Below are positions 2,354 to 33,816 of a stretch of 64,000 nt of DNA, in pieces. Made by a program: the position numbers and the translations under genes. This DNA is from an uncultured Verrucomicrobiota bacterium (GTDB taxonomy: Bacteria > Verrucomicrobiota > Verrucomicrobiia > Opitutales > Opitutaceae), in contig CAIVJE010000114.1 in assembly GCA_903906135.1 (NCBI GenBank), forward strand, positions 78 to 64,077. Direction: 5' to 3'. The stretch's first letter is position 1, and each line of letters starts with the position of its first letter. The notes under the pieces were generated by a model. That model saw nothing but the letters and a program-made list of their open reading frames with translations, searched no databases and was not told the origin of the DNA.

Positions 2354-3511
2354 TCAGGTGGCGGCGCGTTTGCGGGAAAAATTGACGAGGTGGATGCCGA
2401 ATTGAAGGAGGAGACCGAGGCCCATCATGAGGCAGGCAATGTAGGGCAGAATCCAGTTGGGGTTGCGCACGACTTGCAGAATCGAAGTGCGATCATTGTT
2501 TTCGAAGCCAGCCTGATAGTAAGTGAGACCCGCGTAGCGCAGAGGATTGTTCATGTAGATGAGCACTTCTCGATCCTCGCTCTGATTGTCTGTGGTGAGC
2601 TGGATGCGGCTCGCAAAGTTTTTGGGAATATCGGTACCGGCATATTTCTCATGCGTGAAATTGAGCAGCTTGACGGTGTGAGTTTGATAATAGCGACGGA
2701 GGCGTAGCGTTATCTCCCAGGTATGGCCTTGATAGACTACCGTCTGCGGTTGGCTGAGCGCGGGTGACGCCAACCAAGTGCCCAGCGAGCCTTCCGTGCC
2801 GGCGAGCTCCACAAAAGTTGCGGGCAGGTTGCCTTCACTTTCTTTGGCGTTTAAGGGGAGGGGAAGCACGGCAATGCTCGGCCCGATTCCTGCGGTCGCC
2901 CGCGCCGCCGGCGTGCCGGGGGCCTGTGCGCGCCGTTGCAAGGAGGCGTTTGGGAAGTAATCTTTGATGGTTACTTTAAACGGCAACTGGGGGTGTTGGA
3001 TCGTGCCAGTTTCGGCCAGCACCGTCTCTGGGATTGCGACGACTTCATTGTACGATGGATTAGTCAGATCGAGCAGGGCCAATTCATATTGCCGATAGCT
3101 TTCTGAGTAATGTTTCGTCTGACCTTCATCGATGCGCATGAGGCTTTCCTCGGCCAGTAACCCCGTTAGCAGCTCGCCCACGAGCAACAAAATCAAACCG
3201 GTATGGGTGAGCTGGATTCCTGATTTTCGCCACTCAAGCTTGAAGCGATAAATATGGGCCGCGAGTAGATTGATTAGGAGCAGACCACCGATCAGGTAAC
3301 CACCCGGAAAGGCGGGGACCGTAATTCCAGTATGCGGAATTTCCTGCATCACGAAAAACGAGTGAAAGTATTTTTGCTGCACGCCCCAAAGACCTAGTTC
3401 AACTTGGGCCAGCGTCGCGGCGAAGACCAAGATGATGGACATGATTAGCAGCACCACCGTCAGGCGGATAGAAACAAAGAAATCGCGAATCTGGCGAACG
3501 AAGTCGGACAT
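2354..3511 (-). CDS. ccsB: cytochrome c biogenesis protein ResB/CcsB
   Basis: 385-aa ORF. It has an N-terminal TM helix (FFVSIRLTVVLLIMSIILVF), further TM helices, a large soluble domain and a C-terminal TM helix, which is ResB-like architecture. It sits 97 nt upstream of ccsA. Confidence 0.85.
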   Translation of the reverse strand: MSDFVRQIRDFFVSIRLTVVLLIMSIILVFAATLAQVELGLWGVQQKYFHSFFVMQEIPHTGITVPAFPGGYLIGGLLLINLLAAHIYRFKLEWRKSGIQLTHTGLILLLVGELLTGLLAEESLMRIDEGQTKHYSESYRQYELALLDLTNPSYNEVVAIPETVLAETGTIQHPQLPFKVTIKDYFPNASLQRRAQAPGTPAARATAGIGPSIAVLPLPLNAKESEGNLPATFVELAGTEGSLGTWLASPALSQPQTVVYQGHTWEITLRLRRYYQTHTVKLLNFTHEKYAGTDIPKNFASRIQLTTDNQSEDREVLIYMNNPLRYAGLTYYQAGFENNDRTSILQVVRNPNWILPYIACLMMGLGLLLQFGIHLVNFSRKRAAT

Positions 3512-3514
3512 GGC

Positions 3515-4177
3515 TTAGCGGGGCTTGATGGTGGAGAGGAAATCGCGAAAGGCTGTTTGTTCGCGGGTGACTAAGGCAGCGGGACCGATGAGTTTGAAAA
3601 ACCAAGTTTGGCCATCATGCGGCACAATTGCTCCCAGCAAAGTGGTGGGAACTCCATTGGCTTGGCCGGTGGCTTCGACGATCGTTATCTTCAGGCCATT
3701 CGCCTCAATGTTTTTGAGGGAAGCTTCAAGTTGGGCGGCCTCAATTGGCCCCAGCCCTACTTGGCCACGCCAGCGGTTGACGTTGGCGAAAAGTCCTCCG
3801 GTGTCGCCGGGGAAGGCCGTGATGGCTAAATCGCCGACCGCTCCGGCCTCACCGGCAACAGCGTAGCTCCCCTTACGCATTGAACCGAGACTTTTAGCGG
3901 TCCAATGAGCCGGGGCAGTCCAAAGCAAAGCCATCCCTTCAGCGGTTGGCACGTTGCCCGTCATCGCGCCCGGTGCGCTGGCTGGAGCTGCTTCGCCCCC
4001 GATGGCAGGATGCCCATCAGGGAGGGTGGCGCCGGGGGCCATCTGGGCGGGGGCCGCCGCGGCCATGACTGGCGCAGGGTCTTTCGGTGCCCGATAGGCC
4101 ATGATTTTTTGATCCCGACAACCAGTGAAAGGAAGAGCCGCAAGGCCCAGCGAAAGGGAAATGAGGTGAAGCTTCAT
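3515..4177 (-). CDS. lipoprotein of unknown function, co-transcribed with resB-ccsA
   Basis: The internal ATG at 4177 gives MKLHLISLSLGLAALPFTGC, a signal peptide plus lipobox, followed by an Ala/Pro-rich linker and a roughly 130-aa globular part. Its stop lies 3 nt before the resB start. The ORF-track start at 4261 would add 28 non-signal residues, so I judged it less likely. Confidence 0.6.
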   Translation of the reverse strand: MKLHLISLSLGLAALPFTGCRDQKIMAYRAPKDPAPVMAAAAPAQMAPGATLPDGHPAIGGEAAPASAPGAMTGNVPTAEGMALLWTAPAHWTAKSLGSMRKGSYAVAGEAGAVGDLAITAFPGDTGGLFANVNRWRGQVGLGPIEAAQLEASLKNIEANGLKITIVEATGQANGVPTTLLGAIVPHDGQTWFFKLIGPAALVTREQTAFRDFLSTIKPR

Positions 4178-4292
4178 GTTATTAGATACGGTTGAATGCG
4201 CTGAACGGGTAAGTGCAACTCGAACTCGATAATCCACCAAGGCCAAGCTAGCAAATGACAAAATATGCGTAGTCGGGTTTTTTTCGTGCCAA

Positions 4293-5024
4293 ATGATGAC
4301 GTTGGATTACTTAACGGGTATGCAAATTACCCCGCTCGGCGATCAGGCCTTGCTGGTCGAATTAGGTCAGACCATTGACGAATCGACACACCGAAAAGTG
4401 CAGTCCGCTTGGCGATCGCTGGCCGCTGAGCCGCTGCCTGGGGTGACGGAGTTGGTGCCCGCTTACACTACGGTTACCGCTTACTATGATCCGGTCCAAG
4501 CAGTGCAAGCGGGCGCGCCAGCAGACCAAATCGTGGATTGGCTGAGCGATCGATTACGGGAGCGACTGAAGCATCCACCGAAGACCGCGAAAACCAAAGG
4601 TTGTACCGTTGAAATTCCGGTCTGTTATGAAGGCGAGTTTGCGCCAGATCTTGGGATCGTGGCTAAACAGGCTAAACTTACTCCTGCGGAGGTTATCAAA
4701 CTGCACACCAAGACGGAGTACTTGGTTTACTTGGTCGGCTTCGCACCCGGTTTTCCGTATCTCGGTGGGTTGCCAAAAATATTGGCGACCCCGCGTCATG
4801 CTAAGCCGCGGATGGTGGTGCCGGCCGGTTCGGTGGGGATTGGCGGTCAGCAAACGGGAATATATCCCTGCGCGACGCCGGGTGGTTGGAATTTAATCGG
4901 GCGCACTCCGCTGGCTTTATTTCGTCCTGCATTTCATCCGCCGACGTTGCTTAGTGCTGGCGATCGGGTGAAGTTTCGCGCCATCACGCGCGAAGAATTT
5001 TTTCGTCTGGAGGCCGGCGCATGA
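4293..5024 (+). CDS. pxpB: 5-oxoprolinase subunit PxpB (KipI / allophanate hydrolase subunit 1 family)
   Basis: 243-aa ORF with a KipI-like sequence (ITPLGDQALLVEL..., GFAPGFPYLGGLP, GQQTGIYP). Its stop overlaps the next gene's start (ATGA at 5021). The start could instead be ATG 4320. Confidence 0.9.
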   Translation: MMTLDYLTGMQITPLGDQALLVELGQTIDESTHRKVQSAWRSLAAEPLPGVTELVPAYTTVTAYYDPVQAVQAGAPADQIVDWLSDRLRERLKHPPKTAKTKGCTVEIPVCYEGEFAPDLGIVAKQAKLTPAEVIKLHTKTEYLVYLVGFAPGFPYLGGLPKILATPRHAKPRMVVPAGSVGIGGQQTGIYPCATPGGWNLIGRTPLALFRPAFHPPTLLSAGDRVKFRAITREEFFRLEAGA

Positions 5025-6010
5025 TCACGGTGCTAAAACCGGGCTTATTGACGACGGTGCAAGATTTGGGCCGGCCCGGCTATCAGCAATATGGGGTGGT
5101 TGTCGGTGGCGCCTTAGATGCCTTGGCCGCGCGCACGGCCAATTTGCTCGTTGGCAATGAGGAAAATGCGGCGGTCTTAGAGATGGCGCAGACTGGCCCC
5201 ACGTTGAGTTTTTCGCGAAGCACATTGGTTGCGTGGTGCGGGGCTGATTTTGATGCGCAAATTAATGGCGAATCTTGTCCGCGTGATCGTCCCGTGCGGG
5301 TGGCTGCGGGTGACATTCTCCGCTTCGGCTTGGCGCGCCATGGCCTCAGGGCTTGGCTGGCAATCGCTGGCGGGATCGATGTGCCGTTGGTAATGGGCAG
5401 TCGCAGCACTTATCGGCGGGCCGGCCTGGGCGGCTTGGCGGGACGAGCTTTACTCGGCGCTGACCAATTGTCCGGTGGACATCCCTCCGAGTGGTCCCAG
5501 CAGGTTTTAGGAAAATTGCTCGCCAGCAACCAACGGGCAACGGCGTGGAGCGTCAGGCCTGATACCATCGGCCGCCCCGCCCGAGTTGGCGTGGTCCGCG
5601 CAATGCGTGGGCCCGAGTGGGATTGGTTTACGGAACCAGCGCAGCAGGCGTTCTTTCAAGCAACCTGGGTGGCCACCAAAGAAGCGGATCGGATGGGCGT
5701 GCGGCTCAAAGGCCCCGGCTTGGCCCTCGCACAACCGCGCGAAATGATTTCTTCCGCGGTCAATGCGGGGGTCGTGCAGGTACCACCAGCGGGCCAACCC
5801 ATTGTCTTGCTGCCGAGTCGGCAATCCGTTGGCGGTTATCCGCGCTTAGCGGCCGTTGCCGCCGTAGATCTGCGTCATTTTACACAACTTCGCCCGGGTG
5901 ATACCATTCGCTTTGAAGAAATTTCCGTCGTGGGCGCGCAAGATTTACTCCTGACGCAAGCCCGCGACCTCACGCGCGTCCGCCTGGGCCTCAGTCGACT
6001 GCTGGCTTAA
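5021..6010 (+). CDS. pxpC: 5-oxoprolinase subunit PxpC (KipA / allophanate hydrolase subunit 2 family)
   Basis: 329-aa ORF. The N-terminus MITVLKPGLLTTVQDLGRPGYQQYGV is typical of the KipA family. It lies between pxpB and pxpA. Confidence 0.9.
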   Translation: MITVLKPGLLTTVQDLGRPGYQQYGVVVGGALDALAARTANLLVGNEENAAVLEMAQTGPTLSFSRSTLVAWCGADFDAQINGESCPRDRPVRVAAGDILRFGLARHGLRAWLAIAGGIDVPLVMGSRSTYRRAGLGGLAGRALLGADQLSGGHPSEWSQQVLGKLLASNQRATAWSVRPDTIGRPARVGVVRAMRGPEWDWFTEPAQQAFFQATWVATKEADRMGVRLKGPGLALAQPREMISSAVNAGVVQVPPAGQPIVLLPSRQSVGGYPRLAAVAAVDLRHFTQLRPGDTIRFEEISVVGAQDLLLTQARDLTRVRLGLSRLLA

Positions 6011-6016
6011 TTCAAC

Positions 6017-6766
6017 GTGCGACGTATTGATTTAAATTGTGATCTCGGGGAAGGTGCGGGTCAGGATGTCGTCCTGATGCCGCTGATTACTTCGGCAAAT
6101 ATTGCATGCGGGGCTCACGCCGGTGACGAAGCGACGATGCGCGCCACCATCGCGCTGGCTCAAAAACAGGGCGTCGCCATCGGGGCACACCCGGGTTTTG
6201 CCGATCGGGTTAATTTTGGCCGACGTGAAATAACGCTGAGCTTAAATGAAATTCACTCTTTGGTACTGACGCAGACGCAGTTGCTCCAAACGCTAGCGGC
6301 GCAAAGTGGCGGCACGGTCCGGCACGTAAAACCACATGGCGCTCTCTATAATTTAGCGGCGCGAGATGGCGCCGTCGCGCAGGCGGTGGCGGCCGCAGTC
6401 TGGGCGGCGGATCCTCGCCTGATTTTAGTGGGGCTGGCGCGGAGTCACCTGATTACGGCTGGGCAAGCCGCGGGTTTGCGGGTTGCCCAGGAAGTTTTTG
6501 CCGATCGAACTTATCAAGTTGATGGGAAGCTCACCCCGCGGAATGCGCCGGGCGCTTTGCACGAAGTCACTCGTGACGCGGTGGCGCAGGTGAAGCAGAT
6601 GGTGAGCGTGGGGACTGTCACGGCCGTCGACGGAACCATGGTGCCGATCACCGCTGATACCATTTGTCTGCACGGCGATGGACCGCATGCCGTGGAATTT
6701 GCGTTGCAGCTCCGCGCCGCTCTGCACGAGATCCCGATTGAGCTGGCAGCGCTCTCGCATGATTAA
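6017..6766 (+). CDS. pxpA: 5-oxoprolinase subunit PxpA (LamB/YcsF family)
   Basis: 249-aa ORF from GTG. It carries the LamB/YcsF hallmarks IDLNCDLGEG and ANIACGAHAGD. Confidence 0.9.
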   Translation: MRRIDLNCDLGEGAGQDVVLMPLITSANIACGAHAGDEATMRATIALAQKQGVAIGAHPGFADRVNFGRREITLSLNEIHSLVLTQTQLLQTLAAQSGGTVRHVKPHGALYNLAARDGAVAQAVAAAVWAADPRLILVGLARSHLITAGQAAGLRVAQEVFADRTYQVDGKLTPRNAPGALHEVTRDAVAQVKQMVSVGTVTAVDGTMVPITADTICLHGDGPHAVEFALQLRAALHEIPIELAALSHD

Positions 6767-7451
6767 ATTAATTGGGATTTTGGTTGTCGCAGTCGGTTTC
6801 GCCTTGCGCGGTAACACGCTGTTGGTGGTGCTGGCCGCCGGCATCAGCACCGGTTTGGCCGCCGGCATGTCCTTTAACGAGATCATGACCTGGTTTGGGA
6901 AATACTTTGTCGAAAATCGTTACGTGACGCTAACCGTTTTGCTCATGCTGCCGGTGGTCGGGTTGCTGGAACGTTATGGTTTGCGCGAACGCGCGGAGAC
7001 GCTGATCCAGCGGGCGAAAGCGGCTACAGCAGGCCGCGTATTATTATTTTATACGGCGGTGCGGCAAATCTCAGTCGCCTTGGGGGTTAATATTGGCGGA
7101 CACGCCGCGATGGTCCGTCCTTTAGTGGCCCCGATGGCGGAAGGCGCGGCGCAGGCGCGGCACGGCATTTTATCGGAAAAAACCACGGAAGCGATTCGGG
7201 CGCACGCGGCGGCGGCAGAAAATACCGGTAATTTTTTTGGGGAAGATACCGTCTTTGCCGTGGGCGCAGTTTATTTGATTAAAGGGGTTCTCGAGGCGCA
7301 AGGGTACCCCGTGAGTGTCTGGGTACTTTCATTTTGGGGAATTCCGACCGCGCTGGTCGCCTTCGGGTTAATGATTTGGCGCACGCGCGTGCTCGATCAG
7401 CGGATTGCTCGGGAAAGTAAGCCGCCCTCAACCACGGAGGCGGAGCGATGA
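6759..7451 (+). CDS. DUF969-family integral membrane protein
   Basis: ATG 6759 (MIKLIGILVVAVGFALRG) overlaps the pxpA stop by 8 nt. The protein is polytopic and hydrophobic and is paired with a DUF979-like gene and pcp, as is typical for this family. The ORF-track start at 6678 lies inside pxpA and was rejected. Confidence 0.7.
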   Translation: MIKLIGILVVAVGFALRGNTLLVVLAAGISTGLAAGMSFNEIMTWFGKYFVENRYVTLTVLLMLPVVGLLERYGLRERAETLIQRAKAATAGRVLLFYTAVRQISVALGVNIGGHAAMVRPLVAPMAEGAAQARHGILSEKTTEAIRAHAAAAENTGNFFGEDTVFAVGAVYLIKGVLEAQGYPVSVWVLSFWGIPTALVAFGLMIWRTRVLDQRIARESKPPSTTEAER

Positions 7452-24390: not shown

Positions 24391-26499
24391 ATGAATACTC
24401 ATAATCCGGGCGATATCCGTAATTTTGCCATCGTGGGGCAGGCGACTTGCGGCAAAACTATGTTAGCTGAGGCGATGCTGATGTGTAGTGGGACGATTCA
24501 TCGTTTCGGGAGCATTGCAGCTGGTTCTACGCTATCTGATTATCATGTAGGTGAGCAGCAAAGGCACATCTCGATTCACGGTACGCCCCTTAATTGTGAA
24601 TGGCAGGGGCGGCGCTTTAATTTTATCGATACGCCGGGTTACTTGGATTTTAGCAGTGAAGCCATTAACGCCCTCAAAGTAGCGGATTGCGCCCTGATCG
24701 TGATCAATGCGACTCAGGGTATCGGCGTCGGGACCGAATTGATGTGGAATTATGCTTCGGCGTATGGTCTTCCTAAAATTATAGTCATCAACGGACTTGA
24801 TAAAGAGACGGTAAATTTTGATCGGCTCGTGACAGATATTCGCACGCACTTTGGCTCAGCAATATTTCCGCTACAAGTACCGCTCGATGCCGGCATTGGC
24901 TTTCATCAAGTTTTGGATGTCTTGCGGAGTGAGGTGGTGAGTTACGCGCTCGATCGTTCAGGTAAATATACGGAGCAACCCGCGACGGGTCTTTGGCAGG
25001 AACGCGTGCGCGAGTTGCATCAGGAACTTATTGAGCACGTAGCTGAAAGTGATGATAAATTACTCGAACAATTTTTCTCTGATGGCGGCTTGTCGGAGGC
25101 TTTGTTGCGAACCGGTATTCACCCCGCGGTGCAGAATCAGTTGTTCGTCCCCCTGCTGTGCACGGCCGGTGAAGCTAATATTGGGGTCGCGCGCTTGATG
25201 GATTTCATTGCTAAATATGGTTCTTCACCGGCTGACCGGCAGACGATAGGCGCGACCCTCTGTGAGACGAATGCGCCGTGTCTGGTGCCCCTCGACGGCC
25301 TGGAGCCAGTGGCTTATGTTTTCAAAACGCTCACCGATCCACTCAGTGGTGATTTATCATTCTTCCGCGTTTATTCGGGTGAAATTCATGCGGGCATGGA
25401 ACTGTATAACAGCGAGCGGCGCATGACGGAACGTATTGGGCAACTGTATCGTTTGAACGGCAAGCTACGCACGCCAGTGGAAGCACTCCGCGCCGGCGAT
25501 ATGGGCGCGACGGTGAAATTAAAAGATACCCATACGGGCAATACGCTTTGTCTAGCGCGGCACGCGATCGCCTTGCCTACGGTAAATTATCCTACCCCCT
25601 ACACGCGGGCTGCGCTTCAGCTTAATGCCCCAGGCGATGAGGAGAAGTTGGCCGCGGGCTTGAGTGCCTTACACGAAGAGGATCCCGCGTTTAGCTATCA
25701 CACCGATGCGGAGATCCATCAATTTATCATCGCGGCACAGGGTGAGCTGCATCTGGAGGTCCTGTTTGAGCGATTAAAGCGTCGGTATAAGGTCGATGTA
25801 ACCTTAGCCTCACCCAAAATTCGGTATCGCGAGACCATTCGGGGGGATGCCGAGGCGCGTTACCGGCATAAGAAGCAATCAGGGGGCGCCGGCCAATTTG
25901 CGGAGGTCTGGCTACGGATCGAACCAGGTCCGCGCGATAGTGGCATTGTTTTCACGCAGTCCTTAGCGGGGCAGGATGTTGATCGGGTTTTTGTCCCCTC
26001 CGTAGAAAAAGGGGTGCGTACCCTAGCGCAGGAGGGGATTCACGCTGGCTTTCCCGTCACTGATCTGAAAATTAATTTCTTTGGTGGCAAGATGCACTCG
26101 GTTGATTCGAAGGATATTGCCTTTCAAATTGCGGGATATTTCGCGTTTAGAGAGGCTTTTCAAAAGGCACGGCCTTGTTTGCTTGAGCCCATTCACGAAT
26201 TAGAGATTAGGGTACCGGAGGAATTTGTTGGTCGGGTCGTGGGGGATCTTTCCAGTCGTCATGGCAAAATCCTCGGCATGGATATCGCTGGTCGCTTGCA
26301 ACTGATTCGCGCCCAGGTGCCAGCCGCGTCCCTCTATCATTATGGCACTGTTTTGCGTTCGTTGACTGGTGGTCGCGGGATTCATAATGAAAAATTCAGT
26401 CACTACGAAGAACTTGCCGCCGACCAAAGTAAAAAATTAGTCGCTGAGTACCAAGCTGCTCGTGCCGCCGGCACGGCTGGTCATCATCATGAGCATTGA
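24391..26499 (+). CDS. elongation factor G paralogue (EF-G-like, divergent GTPase motifs)
   Basis: 702-aa ORF with the full EF-G domain order. This comprises a G domain, domain II (VFKTLTDPLSGDLSFFRVYSGE), III, IV (RYRHKKQSGGAGQF) and V. The G1-G4 motifs are non-canonical (see findings). Confidence 0.85.
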   Translation: MNTHNPGDIRNFAIVGQATCGKTMLAEAMLMCSGTIHRFGSIAAGSTLSDYHVGEQQRHISIHGTPLNCEWQGRRFNFIDTPGYLDFSSEAINALKVADCALIVINATQGIGVGTELMWNYASAYGLPKIIVINGLDKETVNFDRLVTDIRTHFGSAIFPLQVPLDAGIGFHQVLDVLRSEVVSYALDRSGKYTEQPATGLWQERVRELHQELIEHVAESDDKLLEQFFSDGGLSEALLRTGIHPAVQNQLFVPLLCTAGEANIGVARLMDFIAKYGSSPADRQTIGATLCETNAPCLVPLDGLEPVAYVFKTLTDPLSGDLSFFRVYSGEIHAGMELYNSERRMTERIGQLYRLNGKLRTPVEALRAGDMGATVKLKDTHTGNTLCLARHAIALPTVNYPTPYTRAALQLNAPGDEEKLAAGLSALHEEDPAFSYHTDAEIHQFIIAAQGELHLEVLFERLKRRYKVDVTLASPKIRYRETIRGDAEARYRHKKQSGGAGQFAEVWLRIEPGPRDSGIVFTQSLAGQDVDRVFVPSVEKGVRTLAQEGIHAGFPVTDLKINFFGGKMHSVDSKDIAFQIAGYFAFREAFQKARPCLLEPIHELEIRVPEEFVGRVVGDLSSRHGKILGMDIAGRLQLIRAQVPAASLYHYGTVLRSLTGGRGIHNEKFSHYEELAADQSKKLVAEYQAARAAGTAGHHHEH

Positions 26500-26519: not shown

Positions 26520-26987
26520 AGTCAGGTAAGCGACCGGATCGCGATTATTAATCAAGGCCGCATCAAGTAGCGGGAAGCACGAGCGAGGTTTAGCATAAAC
26601 CGCGGACACCCTTTTCGCAGATTTTATCGGTCAGGCCAATTTACGCAGCGTTACCGTGATCGGTCGCCATGGGACGACGGCGCGGTGCGCCTTGCTGACG
26701 GACTGGAATTAACGGCCAGTTCAGCTGAGCTCCCCGCCGCGATCCAGTCGGCCTTGGTTTCTATCCGGCCACAAAAAATCCATATCTCAAAACGCCCGGT
26801 TGATGTTGAAAATATTTCCCAGATCCGTGTTCAGGAAGAAATTCTCCAAGGGGCGACCGAGCAACTTTGGTTGATTACCAATCAGGGCGCTCGGCTCCCT
26901 GCGCTGGTGGCCAATGAAAGCGCGATGAACGAAGCCTATCATGAGGCGAACGAGTTTACGGCAGCTTCCATCTCGATGATTTGGTAA
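26520..26987 (+). pseudogene. decayed 3' remnant of an ABC-transporter ATPase gene (PotA/CysA/MalK-like, TOBE-type C-terminus)
   Basis: The pieces lie in different frames. SDRIAIINQGRIK-TAG is in frame 0 from about 26529. TAA-TADTLFADFIGQANLRSVTVIGRH is in frame +1 from 26599. ...VRLADGLELT...VSIRPQKIHIS... is back in frame 0 (track ORF 26685-26987). The Walker A/B half of the gene is absent, because the EF-G-like gene ends at 26499. Confidence 0.7.
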
Positions 26988-27064
26988 TTAGCCAATCGGC
27001 GTACCCCCGCATTGAGTTGCGAGACTGCTTGTGGTTGGCCGGCGCTTGTGGCAGCCTGCTGCTA

Positions 27065-28075
27065 ATGATTTCGGCGGTGCATTTTAAAAATTTTAAAGCG
27101 CTGCGCTCGACGGCGGTTCGCTTGGAGCCCTTCAATCTTTTGATCGGCCCCAGTGGCAGCGGCAAGACGAGCTTGATTGAGGCGCTGCTGCGACTCCGGC
27201 AGCTCGCGGGTCAAGCGGCGGCCCACGGCCCGGCGAGTACATTAACATTTTTAAACGGTCCGCAGATTGAGTTTCATTTTCACCCCCCGTTTCAAAATGT
27301 GCGCGTAACCCTCGGCTGTCAGGCCGATGAACTTAGCTGCCATCAGCTGCGTGTGGATCATCTCCCGGGACTCGTGGGGGCAGGGCAGTGGGCCGAGTTG
27401 CGTACCCAACTGCAAGGGATTCGGGCTTACTTGCTAGATCATCAGGCGATGGGCGCGCCGGTGCTGCGCTCGGCGGGGGGGGGCGAATTGGCCGCTAACG
27501 CCAGCAATCTCGCGGCCGTTTTGGCGCAGCGAGCCCAGCAAGCTCCCGTCGCTTTCGCTCATTTGGTGGCGGATTTTTGCCGGATCATGCCGGAGTTTTC
27601 TGGACTCAGTTTTCGTGGGGTGGGTGAGGGGCACGTTGAGCTGAGGGCAGCGCTGCGCGATAGTCCCGAGCACCTCACTTGTGAAAATTTATCCCAAGGG
27701 ACTCTTTACCTGCTCGCCATCTTGACCCTCGCGCACGATCCCCAGCCGCCGACTTTGTTGTGTCTCGAAGAAGCGGATCGCGGCGTGCATCCTCGCCTGC
27801 TGCGCGAAGTTCGGGACGCCCTGTATCGACTGAGCTATCCGGTGGCAACGGAGACGACTCGGCCGGTGGTGCAGGTGATCGCCACCACGCATTCACCTTA
27901 TTTACTGGATCTATTCCGGGATCATCCCTCCGAAATCGTCTTGGCTCACAAACAAGGGAACGCCGCGACCTTTGAGCGCTTAACCGAACGCCCCGACATT
28001 CTTGAATTAATGCGCGAGACTAATTTGGGTGACTTATGGTACAGCGGGATTTTGGGCGGCATCCCAGGCGATTAA
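27065..28075 (+). CDS. soluble ABC-type ATPase (AAA_21/AAA_15-like), putative defence-module ATPase
   Basis: The N-terminus MISAVHFKNFKALRSTAVRLEPFNLLIGPSGSGKTSLIEAL carries Walker A from nt 27146. It also has a signature-like LSQGT, Walker B LLCLEEAD and an H-loop ATTHSPYLLD. There are no TM segments. The ORF-track TTG start at 26981 overlaps the pseudogene, so ATG 27065 is preferred. Confidence 0.8.
   Translation: MISAVHFKNFKALRSTAVRLEPFNLLIGPSGSGKTSLIEALLRLRQLAGQAAAHGPASTLTFLNGPQIEFHFHPPFQNVRVTLGCQADELSCHQLRVDHLPGLVGAGQWAELRTQLQGIRAYLLDHQAMGAPVLRSAGGGELAANASNLAAVLAQRAQQAPVAFAHLVADFCRIMPEFSGLSFRGVGEGHVELRAALRDSPEHLTCENLSQGTLYLLAILTLAHDPQPPTLLCLEEADRGVHPRLLREVRDALYRLSYPVATETTRPVVQVIATTHSPYLLDLFRDHPSEIVLAHKQGNAATFERLTERPDILELMRETNLGDLWYSGILGGIPGD
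27475..27483 (+). repeat. G9 homopolymer inside the ATPase coding sequence
   Basis: The sequence is tcg gcg ggg ggg ggc, encoding S-A-G-G-G, with nine consecutive G counted by hand. Confidence 0.9.
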
Positions 28076-28078
28076 GGT

Positions 28079-28783
28079 ATGCGAGCTCCCGAAGCTATGA
28101 AGCTCGCGCTCCTCAGTGAATCGCTGGCCGATGAGGCTGCCCTCAGCGTTTTAGTGGGTTATGTCCTCGGCGCCCCATTCACTCGAGTGCAACCCACCTT
28201 GCGGGCCCGCGGCTGGCCGTCGGTGGAACAGGTGCTCCCCGCAATTTTGCGTCATCTGCATTTTAATACGGAGGCCGATGGCTTGATTGTCGTCGTCGAT
28301 TCCGATGATTCGGTGGTGCATACGCCCCAGCACGAGGCGCCCGCTTATCATCACCCCGGCTGTCGCATCTGCCGCTTGCGTACGGTTTTTCGGCGGACTT
28401 TAAAAAATCTTCCCCTCAATCCAGCTCACCCGACTCCCGCCAATACCGCTCATCCGCACGTCCGGCGCGAGCGGGTATTGCGCGCCGTGGGCTTAGCGGT
28501 TCCGGCCATGGAAGCTTGGTATTTGTGTGGACGCGACACGTCGATCACGGAGGCGGCGTGGACGGAGGGCCAAGCGGCTGGTCGCGTGCCGTACACCCGC
28601 AGCGAATTAAAATGGCGGGTCTATGGCACCGAGCGCCCTACTTTACCTCATGAGATCAAACGCGCGGTCCAGGAAGTTACCCGGCATCAGGGGGATGTTC
28701 GCCGACTGGAGCATGATTTTCCTCAAGGCTTCGGTTCGCTCGCTCGCGACCTGCGGAGGTGGCGTGCGGAGTCAGGGCGCTGA
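28079..28783 (+). CDS. hypothetical protein with Toprim-like acidic motifs (DUF4276/DUF4435/RloB-like?), partner of the upstream ATPase
   Basis: It starts 3 nt after the ATPase stop. The motifs are KLALLSESLADE (Glu at nt 28118), GLIVVVDSDDS (DxDD at 28298-28309) and a later GLAVPAMEAWYLCG. The order E...DxD...E fits a Toprim fold. The family assignment has not been verified by any search. Confidence 0.55.
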   Translation: MRAPEAMKLALLSESLADEAALSVLVGYVLGAPFTRVQPTLRARGWPSVEQVLPAILRHLHFNTEADGLIVVVDSDDSVVHTPQHEAPAYHHPGCRICRLRTVFRRTLKNLPLNPAHPTPANTAHPHVRRERVLRAVGLAVPAMEAWYLCGRDTSITEAAWTEGQAAGRVPYTRSELKWRVYGTERPTLPHEIKRAVQEVTRHQGDVRRLEHDFPQGFGSLARDLRRWRAESGR

Positions 28784-28853
28784 AGGGCTCGCGCCAAAGG
28801 ATGGGCTTGCCCACGACGGCCTCGCTTGCAGAGTTTTAGTTCGTACACTCTGC

Positions 28854-31800
28854 ATGAAATCTCCCCGCATTTCTTTGGCTGCGCTGATCGGGGCGCAAGC
28901 GCAAGTCACTTTCAATGACTGTGCGGCCAAATTTATGCTCATTGCCCTCGCCCAGCAATTGGCGCGGCAGGCGGGCACTGATCCCAAGTCGCTGATCGCG
29001 TTGATCGCGGCTTTGCTGATTTCTCCCTACATTCTTTTGGGCCCGTTCTGCGGCTGGTTGGCTGATCGTTTCTCTAAGCGCACTGTCATTAATGGAGCAC
29101 TTGTGCTGCAAGTCGTCGCCATGGGTCTAGTCGTCGGTGCGCTCTGGCTTAAATTATTCTGGATCGTGCTGGCGGCTTATTTCCTCTTGTCGGTACAAAC
29201 GGCGATTCTGGCGCCCGCCAAGCGCGGCATTTTACTCGAATACGTCGGGCCTGAGAAGCTGTCCCGCTATGTCGGCTACATGGAGATGAGCGCCGTGACG
29301 GCGGTCTTGGTGGGCTCCTTTGCGGGGGGCTGGCTATTTTCCTACTGGTTGAATCTTGGAGGCGACCCGTGGCGAGCGGCGCTGTTGGTGAGTGTGGTGC
29401 TCTGGTTCCTCGCTGGGGTCGCGTGGGCGATTTTTCAATTCGCTCAACCGACACCTGCGCAAACGAAGACCCCTTTTGCTTGGAACTTGTTTATTCAACA
29501 TTTTCAACTGGCAGCCGAGGTGCGGGGTGATCGGCCGTTATGGCGGGCGACGATGGGTATTTGTTTCTTCTATGGTATCGGCGGATTTATTTCAGTGCTG
29601 CTGCCGCAGGTGGCTTTTGAAATGACGGCCGGCGGGGCGCGCACGGGGGCCATATCAAGTGGGATGCTGCTGATGTTAGGGGTGGGCACGTTGGCCGGAA
29701 ATTTATTTGCCGGACTTTTTTCCCGGCGCGGCATTGAGCTCGGCCTTGCTCCGCTCGGCGGTAGTTTGCTCGCGGGGGCTTTGCTTGGCTTAGGCTTGAC
29801 GACGCCTGGCACCGGGCAATTTAGCGCATTGCTCATCCTGGCTGGTTTTTCGACTGGGCTCTTTTTGGTGCCACTTTATGCGTTTATTCAAAATCACGCG
29901 GGGCAGCATCGTCGCGGGCGGATTTTAGCGGGGGTTAGTTTGCTCGATAGCGTGGCAGGTCTAGGGGCGAGTGGACTTTACTGGCTAGTGGCGAGCGATG
30001 CGATGCTCGGGTGGGGCGCGACCGCCCAATTTTTTGCACTGACGGGGTGCACGTTGTTGATGGTGGCTTACGGACTGTGGCATTTGCCGCACGAAACGGT
30101 GTGCACGGTGATGCGATTGATTGGCCCACTATTCTATACAGTTAAAACGAAGGGCCGCGGGCATGTGCCGGTCGGTGGTGCTCTGGTGATCTGCAATCAT
30201 CTTTCCTATGTCGACGCGGTGGTGCTGCAAATCGCGTCGCCGCGCCCACTCCGTTTTGTCGCCTTTGCCGGTTTTTCTAAAAACCCAGCTTTGCGTTTTC
30301 TTTTTAGGGCGTCGGGGGTTATTCCCGTTAACGCGAATAAGCCCATGAAGGGGATTCGACTCGCGGCGGAGGCGGCCAGGCGCGGCGAATTAGTCTGTGT
30401 CTTTCCGGAGGGGGCTATTTCCCGCACTGGCCAGCTGATGAAAATCACCCGAGGCTTTGAACGCATCGCGGAATTGGCGCAGGTTACAGTGGTGCCCGCG
30501 GTCATTGATGGGCTGTGGGGTTCGATTTATTCTTTCGCGGGCAATCGCTACCTGTGGAAATCACCCCGGCTATTACCCACTTCGGTTTGCGTTATTTTTG
30601 GTCAGCCGCTTTTGCCCGCCCAGATTGATCGCGCACATGCGCGCAAAGCACTCCTTGATTTAGCCGAAGCCGCGTTCCAGGAACGCCCGGTGCTTCGGCG
30701 TCATTTGGCCCGAGAGGTGGTGCGTTCACTGGCCAAGCGCCCGCGCCACTTAGAGGTGATTGATCGAACCGCTGAACGCCGCACGATGACGGCTGGTCAA
30801 TTGCTCGCGGTGGCCGCGGCGCTGTCGCGTCATATCGCCCGCCATATACCCGAGCAGCGGGTGGGCATTGTGCTGCCACCTGGGCTGGGCGCGCATATCG
30901 CTAATCTCGCCGTGGCGTGCGCCAATAAAACGCCCGTTAATTTGAATTTTACGGCGGGTCGATCCGCGATCGAGTCCAGTCTGCGTATTGGAGAAATTAA
31001 AACGGTGATCACCGCCGATGCCCTGCGGGTGCGCATCCCCGATTTTCCTTTCCCCGCGCATACGCTGGATCTCAAAACTGAATTGGGTGCCATGGGCGGG
31101 AGACGCGCGATTTTCCCGTGGCTGGTCGCGGCTTGGCTGCTGCCCAATCAGTGGTTTGCCGATTTGCTGGGACTCCCGCGCGAAGGTGATCGGGCCGAGG
31201 CGGCCTTGCTTTTTACCAGTGGTAGTTCCGGTGAACCGAAAGGGGTGATTTTAACCCATCGTAATATTCTAGCGAATTGCGCGCAGATTTCTTCGCTCTC
31301 GATTCTTCCCGATACGGCAATTTTGCTGGGTTGCTTACCGATTTTTCACTCGATGGGCTTCACGGTTACTTTGTGGTATCCGCTGCTCCGTGGGTGTCGC
31401 GTGGTTACACTGCCTAGTCCGCTCGATACGCGTAAAATTGCGGAGTCAATCCAACAAGAAAAAGCGACCGTCTTGCTGGGGGCGCCAACTTTTATTCGCC
31501 CGTTGCTGAGAAAAGCGACCAAGGAGGAACTCCAGTCCCTGGATTTAGTGGTCACCGGCGCGGAAAAATTACCGCTCGACCTTTACGAGGGATTTTTAGC
31601 GGCCTTCGGCATTGAGATTTTGCAAGGGTATGGTCTCACCGAAACTACGCCCGCTTCTAATATCAACCAGCATCATCCCCCCGTCACAACGGTGCATGCG
31701 CATCCCCAAATCGGAAAAAAGGTGGGTGCCGTTGGTCGTTTGATGCCGGGCATGACCGCGAGAATTGTCGATCCCGACACCGGCGCGGAATTGCCCTTGG

Positions 31801-32294
31801 GCGAGACGGGGATGGTCTGGATGCGCGGCGCTAATATTTTTCCAGGCTATTTGAAGGATGGAGAAAAAACTGCCGCCGCTTTTAAGGACGGGTGGTTTAT
31901 CACGGGCGATCTCGGCCGCTTTGACGAAGATGGTTTTTTATTTATCGAGGGTCGGCTTTCTCGGCTTTCAAAAATTGGTGGCGAAATGGTGCCACACGGA
32001 ATGGTGGAGCAACAAATTATTGAGGCCTTTGGCTGGATAGAAACCGATGGACCGACGGCCATCGTGGTCGGAGTCCCTGATGTTTCGAAAGGAGAGGCGA
32101 TTGTTTTAATCACCACTCGCGAGGTTACGATCGATCAGCTGCGGACTAAATTATTGTCCGCGGGTCTGCCCAGCCTGTGGATCCCGCGACAAATTCGTCG
32201 GGTGGATAAAATCCCCATCCTCGGCACGGGTAAGACCGATTTAAAGGGTTGTCGGGCGCTTGCGCTCGTAGGATCTAAGCTGACCGCCGATTAA
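28854..32294 (+). CDS. tri-functional fusion: LplT-like MFS lysophospholipid transporter, PlsC-type acyltransferase and acyl-ACP/CoA synthetase (Aas-like)
   Basis: ATG 28854 (MKSPRISLAALIG...) precedes about 400 aa of MFS helices. These are followed by the acyltransferase HX4D motif (ICNHLSYVDAV) and FPEGAISRTG. The AMP-binding motifs are FTSGSSGEPKGV, GYGLTET and GDLGRFDEDGFLFIEGR. The ORF-track start at 28623 overlaps the upstream gene. Confidence 0.88.
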   Translation: MKSPRISLAALIGAQAQVTFNDCAAKFMLIALAQQLARQAGTDPKSLIALIAALLISPYILLGPFCGWLADRFSKRTVINGALVLQVVAMGLVVGALWLKLFWIVLAAYFLLSVQTAILAPAKRGILLEYVGPEKLSRYVGYMEMSAVTAVLVGSFAGGWLFSYWLNLGGDPWRAALLVSVVLWFLAGVAWAIFQFAQPTPAQTKTPFAWNLFIQHFQLAAEVRGDRPLWRATMGICFFYGIGGFISVLLPQVAFEMTAGGARTGAISSGMLLMLGVGTLAGNLFAGLFSRRGIELGLAPLGGSLLAGALLGLGLTTPGTGQFSALLILAGFSTGLFLVPLYAFIQNHAGQHRRGRILAGVSLLDSVAGLGASGLYWLVASDAMLGWGATAQFFALTGCTLLMVAYGLWHLPHETVCTVMRLIGPLFYTVKTKGRGHVPVGGALVICNHLSYVDAVVLQIASPRPLRFVAFAGFSKNPALRFLFRASGVIPVNANKPMKGIRLAAEAARRGELVCVFPEGAISRTGQLMKITRGFERIAELAQVTVVPAVIDGLWGSIYSFAGNRYLWKSPRLLPTSVCVIFGQPLLPAQIDRAHARKALLDLAEAAFQERPVLRRHLAREVVRSLAKRPRHLEVIDRTAERRTMTAGQLLAVAAALSRHIARHIPEQRVGIVLPPGLGAHIANLAVACANKTPVNLNFTAGRSAIESSLRIGEIKTVITADALRVRIPDFPFPAHTLDLKTELGAMGGRRAIFPWLVAAWLLPNQWFADLLGLPREGDRAEAALLFTSGSSGEPKGVILTHRNILANCAQISSLSILPDTAILLGCLPIFHSMGFTVTLWYPLLRGCRVVTLPSPLDTRKIAESIQQEKATVLLGAPTFIRPLLRKATKEELQSLDLVVTGAEKLPLDLYEGFLAAFGIEILQGYGLTETTPASNINQHHPPVTTVHAHPQIGKKVGAVGRLMPGMTARIVDPDTGAELPLGETGMVWMRGANIFPGYLKDGEKTAAAFKDGWFITGDLGRFDEDGFLFIEGRLSRLSKIGGEMVPHGMVEQQIIEAFGWIETDGPTAIVVGVPDVSKGEAIVLITTREVTIDQLRTKLLSAGLPSLWIPRQIRRVDKIPILGTGKTDLKGCRALALVGSKLTAD

Positions 32295-32379
32295 GCGCGC
32301 CGGCTTCTGCTCTTTACGGGTAGGGCGCGGCTATCCCCATGCTTGCACGTTCGCTGCCAACTCTGGTAAATCATTAACC

Positions 32380-33816
32380 ATGTCTGCTCCGCATTCCGTC
32401 GCTACCCGCCAACTGAAGCGTCGCCTGGGCGCCCGCGTTGATCTTTCAGCTGCGGGCTGTTGGGCCGCTTCGTTTGACAGTAGTAAAATATCATTTCTCC
32501 CCGTTGCCGTCATTAGCCCTCGGGTAGAAGCGGACATCGGCATCGTGCTGGTTTTGGCGAACAAGTATCACGTTCCCGTTACGGTGCGCGGTCGCGGGAC
32601 AACCTTGATGGGCTCCGCTGCTCCCGTGCGGGGCGGCTGGGTGCTGGATATGTTGAAATTAAATAAAGTGGTGATCGACGCTGATGCTGGCATGGCCCAG
32701 GTCGGGGCGGGCGCGACTACCGCTAACGTGCAGCGCGCCGCGGCCGCTCACGGCTGGTTTTATCCCCCGGATCCATCGTCGAAGGAGTATTGCACCATCG
32801 GGGGGAATATTGCCTGTAATGCGGGGGGAATGCATGGGGGCAAGTATGGGGTTACTCGAGATTTTGTTATCGCCCTCCGTGGTTTTCTGCCGACGGGGGA
32901 ATTTGTGCAGTGGGGCACTGCGACCAAAAAATTTGCCGCCGGATTTAATTTGCGTGACCTCTGGATCGGGAGTGAAGGCTTGCTGGGGGTCGTAACCGGA
33001 GCGGTGTTGAAGCTTATTCCACAGCCGGCTGCGCGCTGGACGCTATTGACCGCTTTCACGGATGAAGTAGCCGCATTAAAAGCCGCTCGCGTGTTATTTC
33101 GTGCGCGGGTGCAGCCGGCAATTTGCGAGTTCCTGGATCGTGAAAGCGTTTTGTGTGCCGAGCGAGCCACCGGGCAAACGGTTTTTCCGGGGCAAGCGGG
33201 CCGCCCCGTCATTCTCCTCGAGCTCGCGGGAACCGTGAGTGAGGTCAAAGATCTACAGCGAGAGGTGTTGGCGTGGGCGCGCACGCAGGCGCTCGCTTAC
33301 CGAGCAGCGAGGAGTCGCACCGAAGTGGAAGCGCTCTGGGCTGTCCGCCGTAAATGCTCTGGGGCGATGTTCGAGTTAGGTGACGCCAAACTTAACGAAG
33401 ATATCGTAATCCCCATGCGCAACTACGAGAAATTCGCAAAATTCCTCGCCCGCTTGAAACGTGATTCCCAATTACCGATCCCTACTTTTGGGCATGTCGC
33501 GGATGGCAATCTCCACGTCAATATCATGTATCACCGTGCCCATCCGCAAGAGACCAAGGCGGCGGAGGCCGCGGTGCAAAAATTGATGGAAACGGTCGTG
33601 GCAATGGGCGGCGCAATTTCTGGTGAGCATGGCATTGGTCTCGCGAAGACTCCCTTCCTGCGCTTGCAGCACAACCCGGCGCAGATAAAGGCGATGCTTG
33701 CCGTGAAAAAGGCTCTCGACCCACGCAATATTTGTAATCCCGGCAAAATGTTCGAGGTCGTACGCATCTGGAAATTTCCCAAATTGGCTATCCAGCTGCC
33801 TTGGGATCATAAATGA
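32380..33816 (+). CDS. FAD-linked oxidase (GlcD / D-lactate dehydrogenase family)
   Basis: 478-aa ORF. It has an FAD-binding PCMH-type N-domain (VTVRGRGTTLMGSAAP, NAGGMHGGKYG) and a C-terminal FAD-oxidase domain (GGAISGEHGIGLAK). Confidence 0.85.
   Translation: MSAPHSVATRQLKRRLGARVDLSAAGCWAASFDSSKISFLPVAVISPRVEADIGIVLVLANKYHVPVTVRGRGTTLMGSAAPVRGGWVLDMLKLNKVVIDADAGMAQVGAGATTANVQRAAAAHGWFYPPDPSSKEYCTIGGNIACNAGGMHGGKYGVTRDFVIALRGFLPTGEFVQWGTATKKFAAGFNLRDLWIGSEGLLGVVTGAVLKLIPQPAARWTLLTAFTDEVAALKAARVLFRARVQPAICEFLDRESVLCAERATGQTVFPGQAGRPVILLELAGTVSEVKDLQREVLAWARTQALAYRAARSRTEVEALWAVRRKCSGAMFELGDAKLNEDIVIPMRNYEKFAKFLARLKRDSQLPIPTFGHVADGNLHVNIMYHRAHPQETKAAEAAVQKLMETVVAMGGAISGEHGIGLAKTPFLRLQHNPAQIKAMLAVKKALDPRNICNPGKMFEVVRIWKFPKLAIQLPWDHK

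Follow-up and report, generated by a model that had tools for sequence, protein, structure and literature searches.

A family-wide gene pair of Opitutaceae, an ABC-type ATPase and a divergent DUF4276-like protein, as a candidate ATPase-nuclease conflict module

Several defence systems combine an ATP-binding cassette (ABC) ATPase with a Toprim nuclease. In OLD and in GajA of Gabija the ATPase and the Toprim domain are fused, whereas PARIS splits them over two genes, AriA and AriB, the latter a DUF4435 Toprim nuclease of about 35 kDa. RloA/RloB and AbiLi/AbiLii likewise join an AAA_21-type ATPase to a small Toprim-like partner, and for pairs of an AAA_21 ATPase with a DUF4276 protein both the architecture and the superfamily are already known. 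The described system closest to the locus reported here is HEC-01 (PADLOC 'Hma-embedded candidate 01'), a two-gene operon with the ATPase first and a TOPRIM-like partner of about 200 amino acids (aa) second (bioRxiv 10.1101/2024.01.29.577857). Here we describe a gene pair of this general layout in a 64,000-nucleotide (nt) stretch of DNA (hereafter the window) from an uncultured Verrucomicrobiota bacterium of the family Opitutaceae (assembly GCA_903906135.1, contig CAIVJE010000114.1, positions 78 to 64,077). The first gene encodes an ABC-type ATPase and the second a small protein that we call ORF2, for open reading frame (ORF) 2. We find that the pair has long belonged to Opitutaceae chromosomes, where it is passed on vertically and mostly in synteny, and that it is no recent insertion; we favour, with moderate confidence, its interpretation as an ATPase-nuclease conflict module of the HEC-01 / Mad3-Mad4 kind.

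The first gene encodes a compact ABC ATPase from the same AAA_21 clade as HEC-01A and Mad3. Its reading frame is open from a TTG at 26981 to 28075, which would give 364 aa, and its homologues start at an internal ATG, since tblastn alignments in relatives begin at residue 1 of the form that starts at 27065 (Table 1). Pfam AAA_21 (1e-24) and AAA_15 (6e-17) both match above cutoff. The top ranks in PADLOC are taken by six HEC-01A models (1e-38 to 2e-31), followed by weaker matches to PDC-M07A, AriA (5e-24), mad3, AbiLi (1.8e-16) and Old (8.7e-14), and the AriA model covers the same residues and model positions as the Pfam AAA_21 match. An earlier note, made from the sequence alone, had called this gene an ABC ATPase lacking a transporter partner on the strength of the motifs GPSGSGKT, LSQGT, LLCLEEAD and ATTHSP. 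That assignment is borne out: Walker A, signature, Walker B with its catalytic Glu and H-loop stand in canonical order, all with invariant key residues in an alignment of 14 sequences that includes plasmid relatives, where a G240-x-H242-P243 stretch after the Walker B Glu is conserved as well, and the closest profiles belong to defence candidates. The AlphaFold2 (AF2) model of the protein (mean predicted local distance difference test score, pLDDT, 88.5) retrieved PtuA, Rad50, SMC1A, an Smc head, RecN and OLD from the PDB with Foldseek (E 8e-12 to 1e-9, TM-score 0.48-0.62). The OLD protein of Thermus scotoductus (6p74), one of these structural matches (8.6e-10), was also the only PDB sequence match (1.7e-4). 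The modelled protein has a short insert 1 and no long AriA-type helical inserts.

ORF2 opens at either of two ATG codons. The TAA stop of the ATPase gene ends at 28075 and is followed by an ATG at 28079, and the alternative ATG at 28097 lies 21 nt past the stop. We regard ATG 28097 as more probably the functional start, because nearly all full-length members among the 150 family representatives listed align from residue 7 of the longer form and because relatives outside the window's own clade begin MK[LVI]A. The family is large. An exhaustive search of representatives gave 560 clusters at 50% identity (452 at E ≤ 1e-10), and word-indexed searches gave 1,540 to 2,209 clusters at 90% identity; the representatives listed are about 210 aa long if full-length and 38-64% identical.

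Established family models hardly register this protein. ORF2 had no match in Pfam (E ≤ 1), NCBIfam or PHROGs, the Pfam DUF4276 model (PF14103) included, and profile searches with PADLOC AriB, DUF4435, Toprim_Old, RecR and RNase M5 found no match to it either; PADLOC HEC-01B matched its N-terminal 73 aa only, with E values of 0.014 and 0.024. Profile searches with both proteins, named by the earlier note as a check, thus placed the ATPase beside HEC-01A and its kin but yielded no Pfam match for ORF2. Among 28 diverse ORF2 relatives scanned singly, HEC-01B (PDLC04202) was matched by 12 (best 6e-5), mad4 by five (best 0.0036), RloB by three (best 0.019) and DUF4276 by two (best 0.0031). Furthermore, an hhalign comparison of the ORF2 family profile with the DUF4276-type partners of plasmid ATPases gave 88% probability and an E value of 3e-6 over 118 columns, and three motifs line up in it: the Glu that follows strand 1, the hydrophobic strand with its D-x-D, and the E-A-W after strand 4. 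Single-sequence hhalign runs against such partners gave E values of 2.9e-4 and 1.1e-3, and one partner, L075, did not align to ORF2. These comparisons show that ORF2 is a distantly related, divergent and previously unmodelled member of the group formed by DUF4276, HEC-01B, Mad4 and RloB.

The E...DxD...E order from which a Toprim nuclease had originally been proposed is real and conserved across 137 family sequences (Table 1). E8 is matched by E11, which is invariant in the DUF4276 set, the DSD by VVVVDRDD and VCDLDN of DUF4276-type partners, and the E-A-W by their invariant E-x-E-A-W. In the AF2 model (pLDDT 86.5, predicted TM-score 0.84) the elements follow the order b1-a1-b2-a2-b3-insert-a3-b4 before a helical C-terminal domain, with strands at residues 2-7, 29-31, 62-68 and 128-134 and helices at 10-24, 43-57 and 90-103, so that E8, D68/D70 and E139 fall at predicted strand ends, as in Toprim. 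The proposal of a Toprim-like partner is upheld as far as profile homology to DUF4276 and the register of the motifs go, but not by a Foldseek match to a solved Toprim structure. The fold is supported only indirectly, through the DUF4276 homology and published assignments that place DUF4276 and RloB in the Toprim superfamily (PMC12065111) and ascribe to HEC-01B a TOPRIM-like character and a conserved metal site (bioRxiv 10.1101/2024.01.29.577857), because neither Foldseek nor a profile search of PDB sequences with the ORF2 family, which returned no relevant chain, gave a solved Toprim match.

What sets the ORF2 family apart is a His/Cys insert after strand 3. Among the same 137 sequences H75 is kept in 114, H79 in 95, C89 in 120 and C92 in 117; all four residues occur together in 93, and their loss tends to be joint. 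The DUF4276 partners compared have no such Cys pair, and L076 retains only 'DCR'. Zinc binding or contact with nucleic acid is the probable role of the insert, for which a zinc site is plausible. The earlier note had singled out one His/Pro-rich, Cys-containing segment as foreign to the named families. Its H-x3-H...C-x2-C part is indeed conserved and family-specific, but the Pro/His-rich stretch further on is a lineage-variable loop, predicted to be disordered (pLDDT below 50 at residues 109-114 and 119-123). The suspicion that the second protein is a distinct variant has held up well, with an unmodelled subfamily and a conserved insert of its own.

Table 1. Coordinates of the gene pair, its motifs and the adjoining gene remnant in the window. 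ATPase residues are numbered from ATG 27065, with invariance judged in the alignment of 14 sequences; ORF2 residues are numbered from ATG 28097, with counts over 137 family sequences.
Feature	Position	Strand	Remarks
Frameshifted C-terminal remnant (~160 codons, last third) of a PotA/CysA-type ABC-transporter ATPase	26529..27008	+	TOBE_2 0.0019
ABC-type ATPase (AAA_21/AAA_15; HEC-01A/Mad3-like)	27065..28075	+	336 aa
Walker A, GPSGSGKT (aa 28-35)	27146..27169	+	G28, G31, G33, K34 invariant
ABC signature-like motif, LSQGT (aa 209-213)	27689..27703	+	S210, G212 invariant
Walker B and catalytic Glu, LLCLEEAD (aa 231-238)	27755..27778	+	E236 invariant
H-loop region, ATTHSP (aa 273-278)	27881..27898	+	Q270, S277 invariant; T275, P278 nearly so
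ORF2, DUF4276-like (Toprim-like) partner	28079..28783	+	234 aa from ATG 28079; 228 aa from ATG 28097
Conserved Glu after strand 1, E8 (E of LLSES)	28118..28120	+	133/137 sequences
D68-S-D70 at end of strand 3 (VVVDSDD)	28298..28306	+	D68 137/137; position 70 D 99, N 38
Family-specific insert H75-x3-H79...C89-R-x-C92 (VVHTPQHEAPAYHHPGCRIC)	28319..28372	+	putative zinc site
Variable Pro/His-rich loop (LNPAHPTPANTAHPH...)	28421..28465	+	kept in some lineages, deleted in others
E139-A-W141 at end of strand 4 (PAMEAW)	28511..28519	+	E139 134/137; W141 137/137

Set against the named systems, the pair resembles HEC-01 most: HEC-01A is the best ATPase profile and HEC-01B the family most often matched by ORF2 relatives. 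It differs from HEC-01 in its shorter ATPase (336 aa against about 360-460, with insert 1 reduced), in the His/Cys insert of ORF2, in being vertically inherited in a whole family, and in lacking any Hma or restriction embedding, its neighbours in the window being an EF-G2-like gene, a transporter pseudogene and an Aas-like gene. The AAA_21 plus DUF4276 (PF14103) pairs of plasmids share the partner gene after the ATPase and the aligned E, DxD and E-A-W motifs. However, both they and Mad3/Mad4 of the MADS system differ from the window pair, which has no methyltransferase or helicase beside it, and whose C-terminal domain and His/Cys insert are unlike theirs. Mad3 and Mad4 do appear as weak matches, mad3 to the ATPase and mad4 to ORF2 relatives; we rejected membership in MADS because NCBIfam MAD3 (NF047739) scored 82.9 bits on the ATPase against a cutoff of 420 and no methyltransferase lies nearby in the window.

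The split-OLD or PARIS-like identity first suggested for the pair did not survive these comparisons. PARIS shares the division over two genes, but ORF2 has no match to DUF4435 or AriB, AriA scores below HEC-01A and is missing from the 50 Foldseek matches listed for the ATPase, and the compact window ATPase lacks the long helical inserts (IS1 and IS2) of AriA. OLD and GajA share the ABC ATPase fold and the E...DxD logic, but there the two parts are fused and here they are separate polypeptides; ORF2 has no Toprim_Old match and no structural match to the OLD Toprim, and PADLOC Old matches the ATPase only. As for RloA/RloB and AbiLi/AbiLii, the window proteins match them weakly or not at all, and the window offers no type I restriction context.

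The distribution of the pair within Opitutaceae was followed from both of its sides. A scan led by ORF2, with one genome per GTDB species, gave 31 loci, 30 of them with upstream sequence, in Opitutus, Lacunisphaera/Opitutaceae metagenome-assembled genomes (MAGs), Oleiharenicola, Didemnitutus, Cephaloticoccus and Rariglobus. The ATPase gene lies directly upstream of ORF2 in all 30 informative loci, and the same Aas-like gene follows downstream in most. A metagenome scan led by the Aas-like gene, and therefore made without regard to the pair, yielded 23 loci whose upstream sequence reaches 1.5 kb or more. In 18 of them the pair immediately precedes the Aas-like gene, and in one it stands 2.2 kb upstream, behind a three-gene insertion; two carry the same insertion on contigs that end before the pair could be seen, and the last two have other genes upstream. 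The pair is widespread, not universal, because two further loci, L050 and L059, have an AsmA-like gene followed directly by a short-form Aas gene, without the pair. Cephaloticoccus primus has intact copies of both genes, and in Opitutus terrae PB90-1 the pair falls within positions 5,089,103-5,101,771 of CP001032. Between genera ORF2 identity is 55-96%, which tracks or exceeds the identity of the Aas-like protein in most loci. Had the pair been an accessory insertion, as was supposed at first, presence and absence in related genomes might have betrayed it; it proved present and adjacent throughout the 30 informative genomes and mostly syntenic.

The junction between the two genes is less constant than their order. 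Many lineages have a 4-nt ATGA overlap, the window's clade a gap of 21-23 nt and others a gap of 91-299 nt. The same-operon layout is conserved; tight translational coupling is not constant. For the window itself, coupling had been deduced from the ATG at 28079 just after the TAA at 28075, and this codon is where it was said to be, but ATG 28097 is the likelier start.

Both genes evolve under purifying selection comparable to that of their housekeeping neighbours, with ratios of nonsynonymous to synonymous substitution rates (dN/dS) of 0.06-0.18 for the pair and 0.03-0.10 for the Aas-like and GlcD-like genes. Their composition is native. The total GC of 27-29 kb (0.595-0.597) does exceed that of the EF-G-like gene (0.509-0.549), as the earlier note had judged by eye, but the foreign origin this might imply was dropped on testing GC at third codon positions (GC3) and codon usage. 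Against the window's 41 genes the pair has GC3 z scores of +0.8 to +0.9 and codon-usage z scores of -0.45 and +0.33, and it is the EF-G-like gene that stands out in composition (GC3 0.532, z = -2.15). ORF2 combines a total GC of 0.613 with GC3 in the normal range, which suggests an effect of amino-acid composition. The window surroundings are housekeeping genes (RND efflux, EF-G2-like, Aas-like, GlcD-like and SMC), and the ORFs on either side of the pair in the window showed no integrase, transposase or repeat boundary.

The decayed gene beside the pair had been taken as a further sign of insertion. It is a real pseudogene, whose 'FADFIGQANL' linker is encoded in a different frame, but its origin appears to be different. 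In the closest relative, L001, an intact 395-aa orthologue of the transporter ATPase stands at 5742-6929, directly upstream of the pair; three more ORFs lie upstream of it (2992-3822, 3835-4857 and 4954-5838), making four ORFs between the AsmA-like gene and the pair. Colinearity of the window with L001 in blastn begins at 26529, the pair downstream is unchanged, and the EF-G2-like gene (24391-26499) fills the space that the transporter ORFs hold in L001. A potABCD-like ABC-transporter operon thus appears to have been replaced by the EF-G-like gene in the window. Therefore, the decay of the transporter gene belongs to a separate upstream rearrangement and not to an insertion of the pair.

Synonymous divergence (dS) of the pair against L001, L003 and L037 is 0.11-0.27, with flanks at 0.5-1.0. 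We rejected recent transfer as an explanation, since the mosaic seen in a sliding window is not specific to the pair: it runs into the Aas-like gene and recurs downstream. Identity to L001 is 90-97% at 27000-29250, 76-82% at 29500-30750, 88-95% at 30750-31750 and 70-72% at 32000-32500. This mosaic suggests frequent homologous recombination among related strains, which accounts for the low dS of the pair.

Outside Opitutaceae the pair keeps its form in different company. ORF2 relatives there are 42-48% identical to the window protein, one of them from a Phycisphaerae MAG. In all 10 places examined the ATPase gene lies directly upstream, with a 4-nt overlap wherever DNA or gene coordinates were available. 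In one group of related contigs, which have downstream CoA-transferase genes in common, the pair is constant within a variable region. Neighbours outside Opitutaceae include BrnT/BrnA, ParE, PIN, HsdM/HsdS, an SLFN-AlbA_2 ATPase, a DUF4011 helicase and DUF4238, all but ParE belonging to the variable genes of that group; HsdM/HsdS were seen to adjoin the pair only in the distant relatives L072 and L073, and in L070 the pair sits among metabolic genes. On plasmids, a gene of 165-230 aa follows the ATPase gene in all seven of its closest relatives inspected. The partner is annotated 'DUF4276 family protein' in five of the seven, and four of these five pairs adjoin methyltransferase, helicase, SNF2 or type I restriction genes. 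The plasmid pairs are of the HEC-01 / Mad3-Mad4 type of arrangement. The defence-island-like context outside Opitutaceae supports a conflict role for the family.

On balance, we lean towards a conflict module of the HEC-01 / Mad3-Mad4 kind, because both the nearest profiles and the gene neighbourhoods in other phyla speak for defence. If the module works as PARIS, OLD and Gabija do, the ATPase would dimerise once ATP is bound and serve as sensor or gate, with ORF2 acting as a metal-dependent nuclease through the acidic cluster of E8, D68-x-D/N70 and E139. The role of such a module would most likely be conflict or defence, by abortive or restriction-like cleavage of nucleic acid. For the pair itself we infer complex formation, nuclease activity, a substrate, a trigger and a defence role from these likenesses.

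Several results weigh against this interpretation. The window ORF2 itself has no significant match to the hidden Markov models of DUF4276 or RloB, and reaches only 0.014 with HEC-01B. Foldseek searches with the ORF2 model gave a best E value of 0.054 against the PDB and 0.035 against BFVD, with no Toprim among the 50 matches listed in either case. By tblastn, neither 72,556 plasmid nor 50,697 phage records yielded an ORF2 homologue. In the study that described it, the type HEC-01 system protected against none of the phages tested (bioRxiv 10.1101/2024.01.29.577857). Moreover, retention throughout a family, Cephaloticoccus included, and tight conservation are unusual for defence genes and would fit a housekeeping function equally well.

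Indeed, the family-wide, syntenic and highly constrained inheritance of the pair speaks for a function that is stable, perhaps even housekeeping. We therefore give some weight to the possibility, on the whole unlikely, that a housekeeping or exapted module performs a cellular nucleic-acid task such as DNA repair, recombination or RNA maturation. It would use the same biochemistry and follow the logic of Rad50/Mre11, RecF/RecR or RNase M5, and it would be inherited from, or share ancestry with, defence-type modules. The pair is adjacent in every informative species-level genome of six genera and stands directly upstream of the Aas-like gene in most of the loci chosen without regard to it. Its dN/dS is near that of the flanking genes, ORF2 is conserved at least as well as Aas in most loci, and the native composition, the housekeeping surroundings and the absence of ORF2 from the plasmid and phage collections all suit a cellular task. 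However, the pair matches no known housekeeping family. RecF (TIGR00611) scores 29.3 bits on the ATPase against a cutoff of 172 and covers its N-terminal 44 aa only, and ORF2 gives no RecR or RNase M5 signal. We set a RecF/RecR-like reading aside on these scores and on domain order as well, since the Cys motif of ORF2 follows the Toprim-like core and the zinc finger of RecR precedes its Toprim domain. The closest profiles are, on the contrary, all defence candidates, the pair sits in toxin-antitoxin or restriction-type variable regions in other phyla, and it is dispensable in at least L050 and L059.

We think it improbable that ORF2 is no nuclease at all but an alpha/beta adaptor or regulator, possibly zinc-binding, in a pair that acts on a substrate other than nucleic acid. 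In favour of such a role, the PDB matches of its model are topped by generic three-layer alpha/beta folds (RpiB, PurE and EIIA, E 0.05-0.4) in place of Toprim, position 70 is Asn in 38 of the 137 sequences, and some DUF4276 partners have no DxD at all. It fits poorly with E8, D68 and E139, which are nearly invariant, stand at predicted strand ends and are in register with DUF4276, and with the consistent partnership of ABC ATPases of this clade with nucleases (bioRxiv 10.1101/2024.01.29.577857).

A recently acquired accessory defence island, interrupting a housekeeping neighbourhood beside a decayed gene, is hardly credible: the GC of 27-29 kb (0.595, where the window averages about 0.556) and the pseudogene immediately upstream speak for it, but the pair holds the same position in its closest relatives, where the upstream transporter gene is intact, has native GC3 and codon usage (z below 1), is syntenic across genera and shows no mobile-element boundaries in the flanking ORFs of the window.

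A bolder proposal, which we advance tentatively and consider doubtful as a whole, joins the conflict module to its unusual inheritance. A defence-type module may have become fixed and vertically maintained across Opitutaceae, and stably in a second lineage (including the Phycisphaerae MAG), kept because it was exapted to essential nucleic-acid maintenance or because it serves as an unusually durable 'core' immune module, with a partner that represents a new zinc-knuckle branch of DUF4276/Toprim, missed by Pfam, NCBIfam and PHROG and weakly detected by PADLOC. New in any case are the unmodelled ORF2 subfamily, its His/Cys insert and its unusual evolutionary stability. If the module is what it seems, the family would be a sizeable branch of ABC-ATPase/Toprim conflict systems, with about 560 clusters at 50% and roughly 1,500-2,200 at 90% identity. 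Its effector is not recognised by family models, and defence censuses of Verrucomicrobiota and Planctomycetota would then probably undercount it. The pair would also lend itself to the question whether ATPase-nuclease pairs of defence type can become stable or housekeeping components, and the conserved His/Cys insert would be a concrete target for mutagenesis and a mechanistic handle. HEC-01, the nearest of the named systems, has as yet no phenotype, and the role of the present module is, by analogy, a proposal.

Some further observations concern the surroundings of the pair. Compared with L050, L024 and its relatives carry an extra block of about 3.6 kb, made up of a 615-aa minus-strand gene (5076-6923 (-) in L024) and the ATPase/ORF2 pair, so that presence and absence differ here at a deeper phylogenetic level. 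In other genera (L007, L016, L031, L044, L045 and L055) the EF-G-like gene comes immediately before the pair. An SLFN/AlbA_2-type putative DNA-binding ATPase adjoins the pair in Cephaloticoccus primus (L017, 6554-7873 (-), judged by eye from the ORF sequence) and in two non-Opitutaceae contigs (L072, 3057-4811, and L073, 3043-4797, each with AlbA_2 and HATPase_c_4), and such neighbours thereby recur in unrelated lineages.

The Aas-like gene (28854-32294) encodes a three-domain fusion of 1146 aa, with an LplT-like major facilitator superfamily (MFS) domain, an acyltransferase and an AMP-binding domain that resembles acyl-ACP (acyl carrier protein) synthetase. Its ORF is open from 28623, which makes it 231 nt overlong and lets it overlap ORF2; homologues start at residue 78 (ATG 28854). 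A short form of Aas without the MFS domain occurs in several lineages, for example L012, L020-L030, L050, L059 and Opitutus terrae.

The 91-299-nt inserts found at the junction in many Opitutaceae are long, sometimes nested palindromes, and the window junction (28076-28096) has none. Their arms are tandem heptads of CACGAAA-, CCTGAAA-, CGTTCTC- or CACAAAA-type, and some carry an inner GTCATCCTGAGCGAAGCGAAGGATCC palindrome. Examples are found in L010 (6663-6782), L061 (5139-5265), L009 (7850-8003), L035 (5841-6000), L008 (1599-1796) and L053 (4723-4904). Folding is very strong in some, such as L010 (z = -6.3) and L061 (z = -5.5), and others are decayed, with z near 0. Clusters of these heptads are rare elsewhere in the relatives' loci compared, and in Opitutus terrae PB90-1 the gene caller sets a 55-aa ORF over the junction element. 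The inserts could be elements like miniature inverted-repeat transposable elements or repetitive extragenic palindromes, with an insertion hot spot at the junction, or a selected intercistronic hairpin. We did not adopt a conserved regulatory RNA as their explanation, since some are decayed, their repeat types differ and none is present in the window. Scanned in full at gathering thresholds, the window had no Rfam match.

Finally, the three-gene block that can separate ORF2 from the Aas-like gene was located in L056 (21-2198), L062 (25-2202) and L068 (about 120-2312). Judged by eye, its genes encode a probable MarR-type regulator, a 420-aa membrane protein and a protein with a GDYLxLxY motif.

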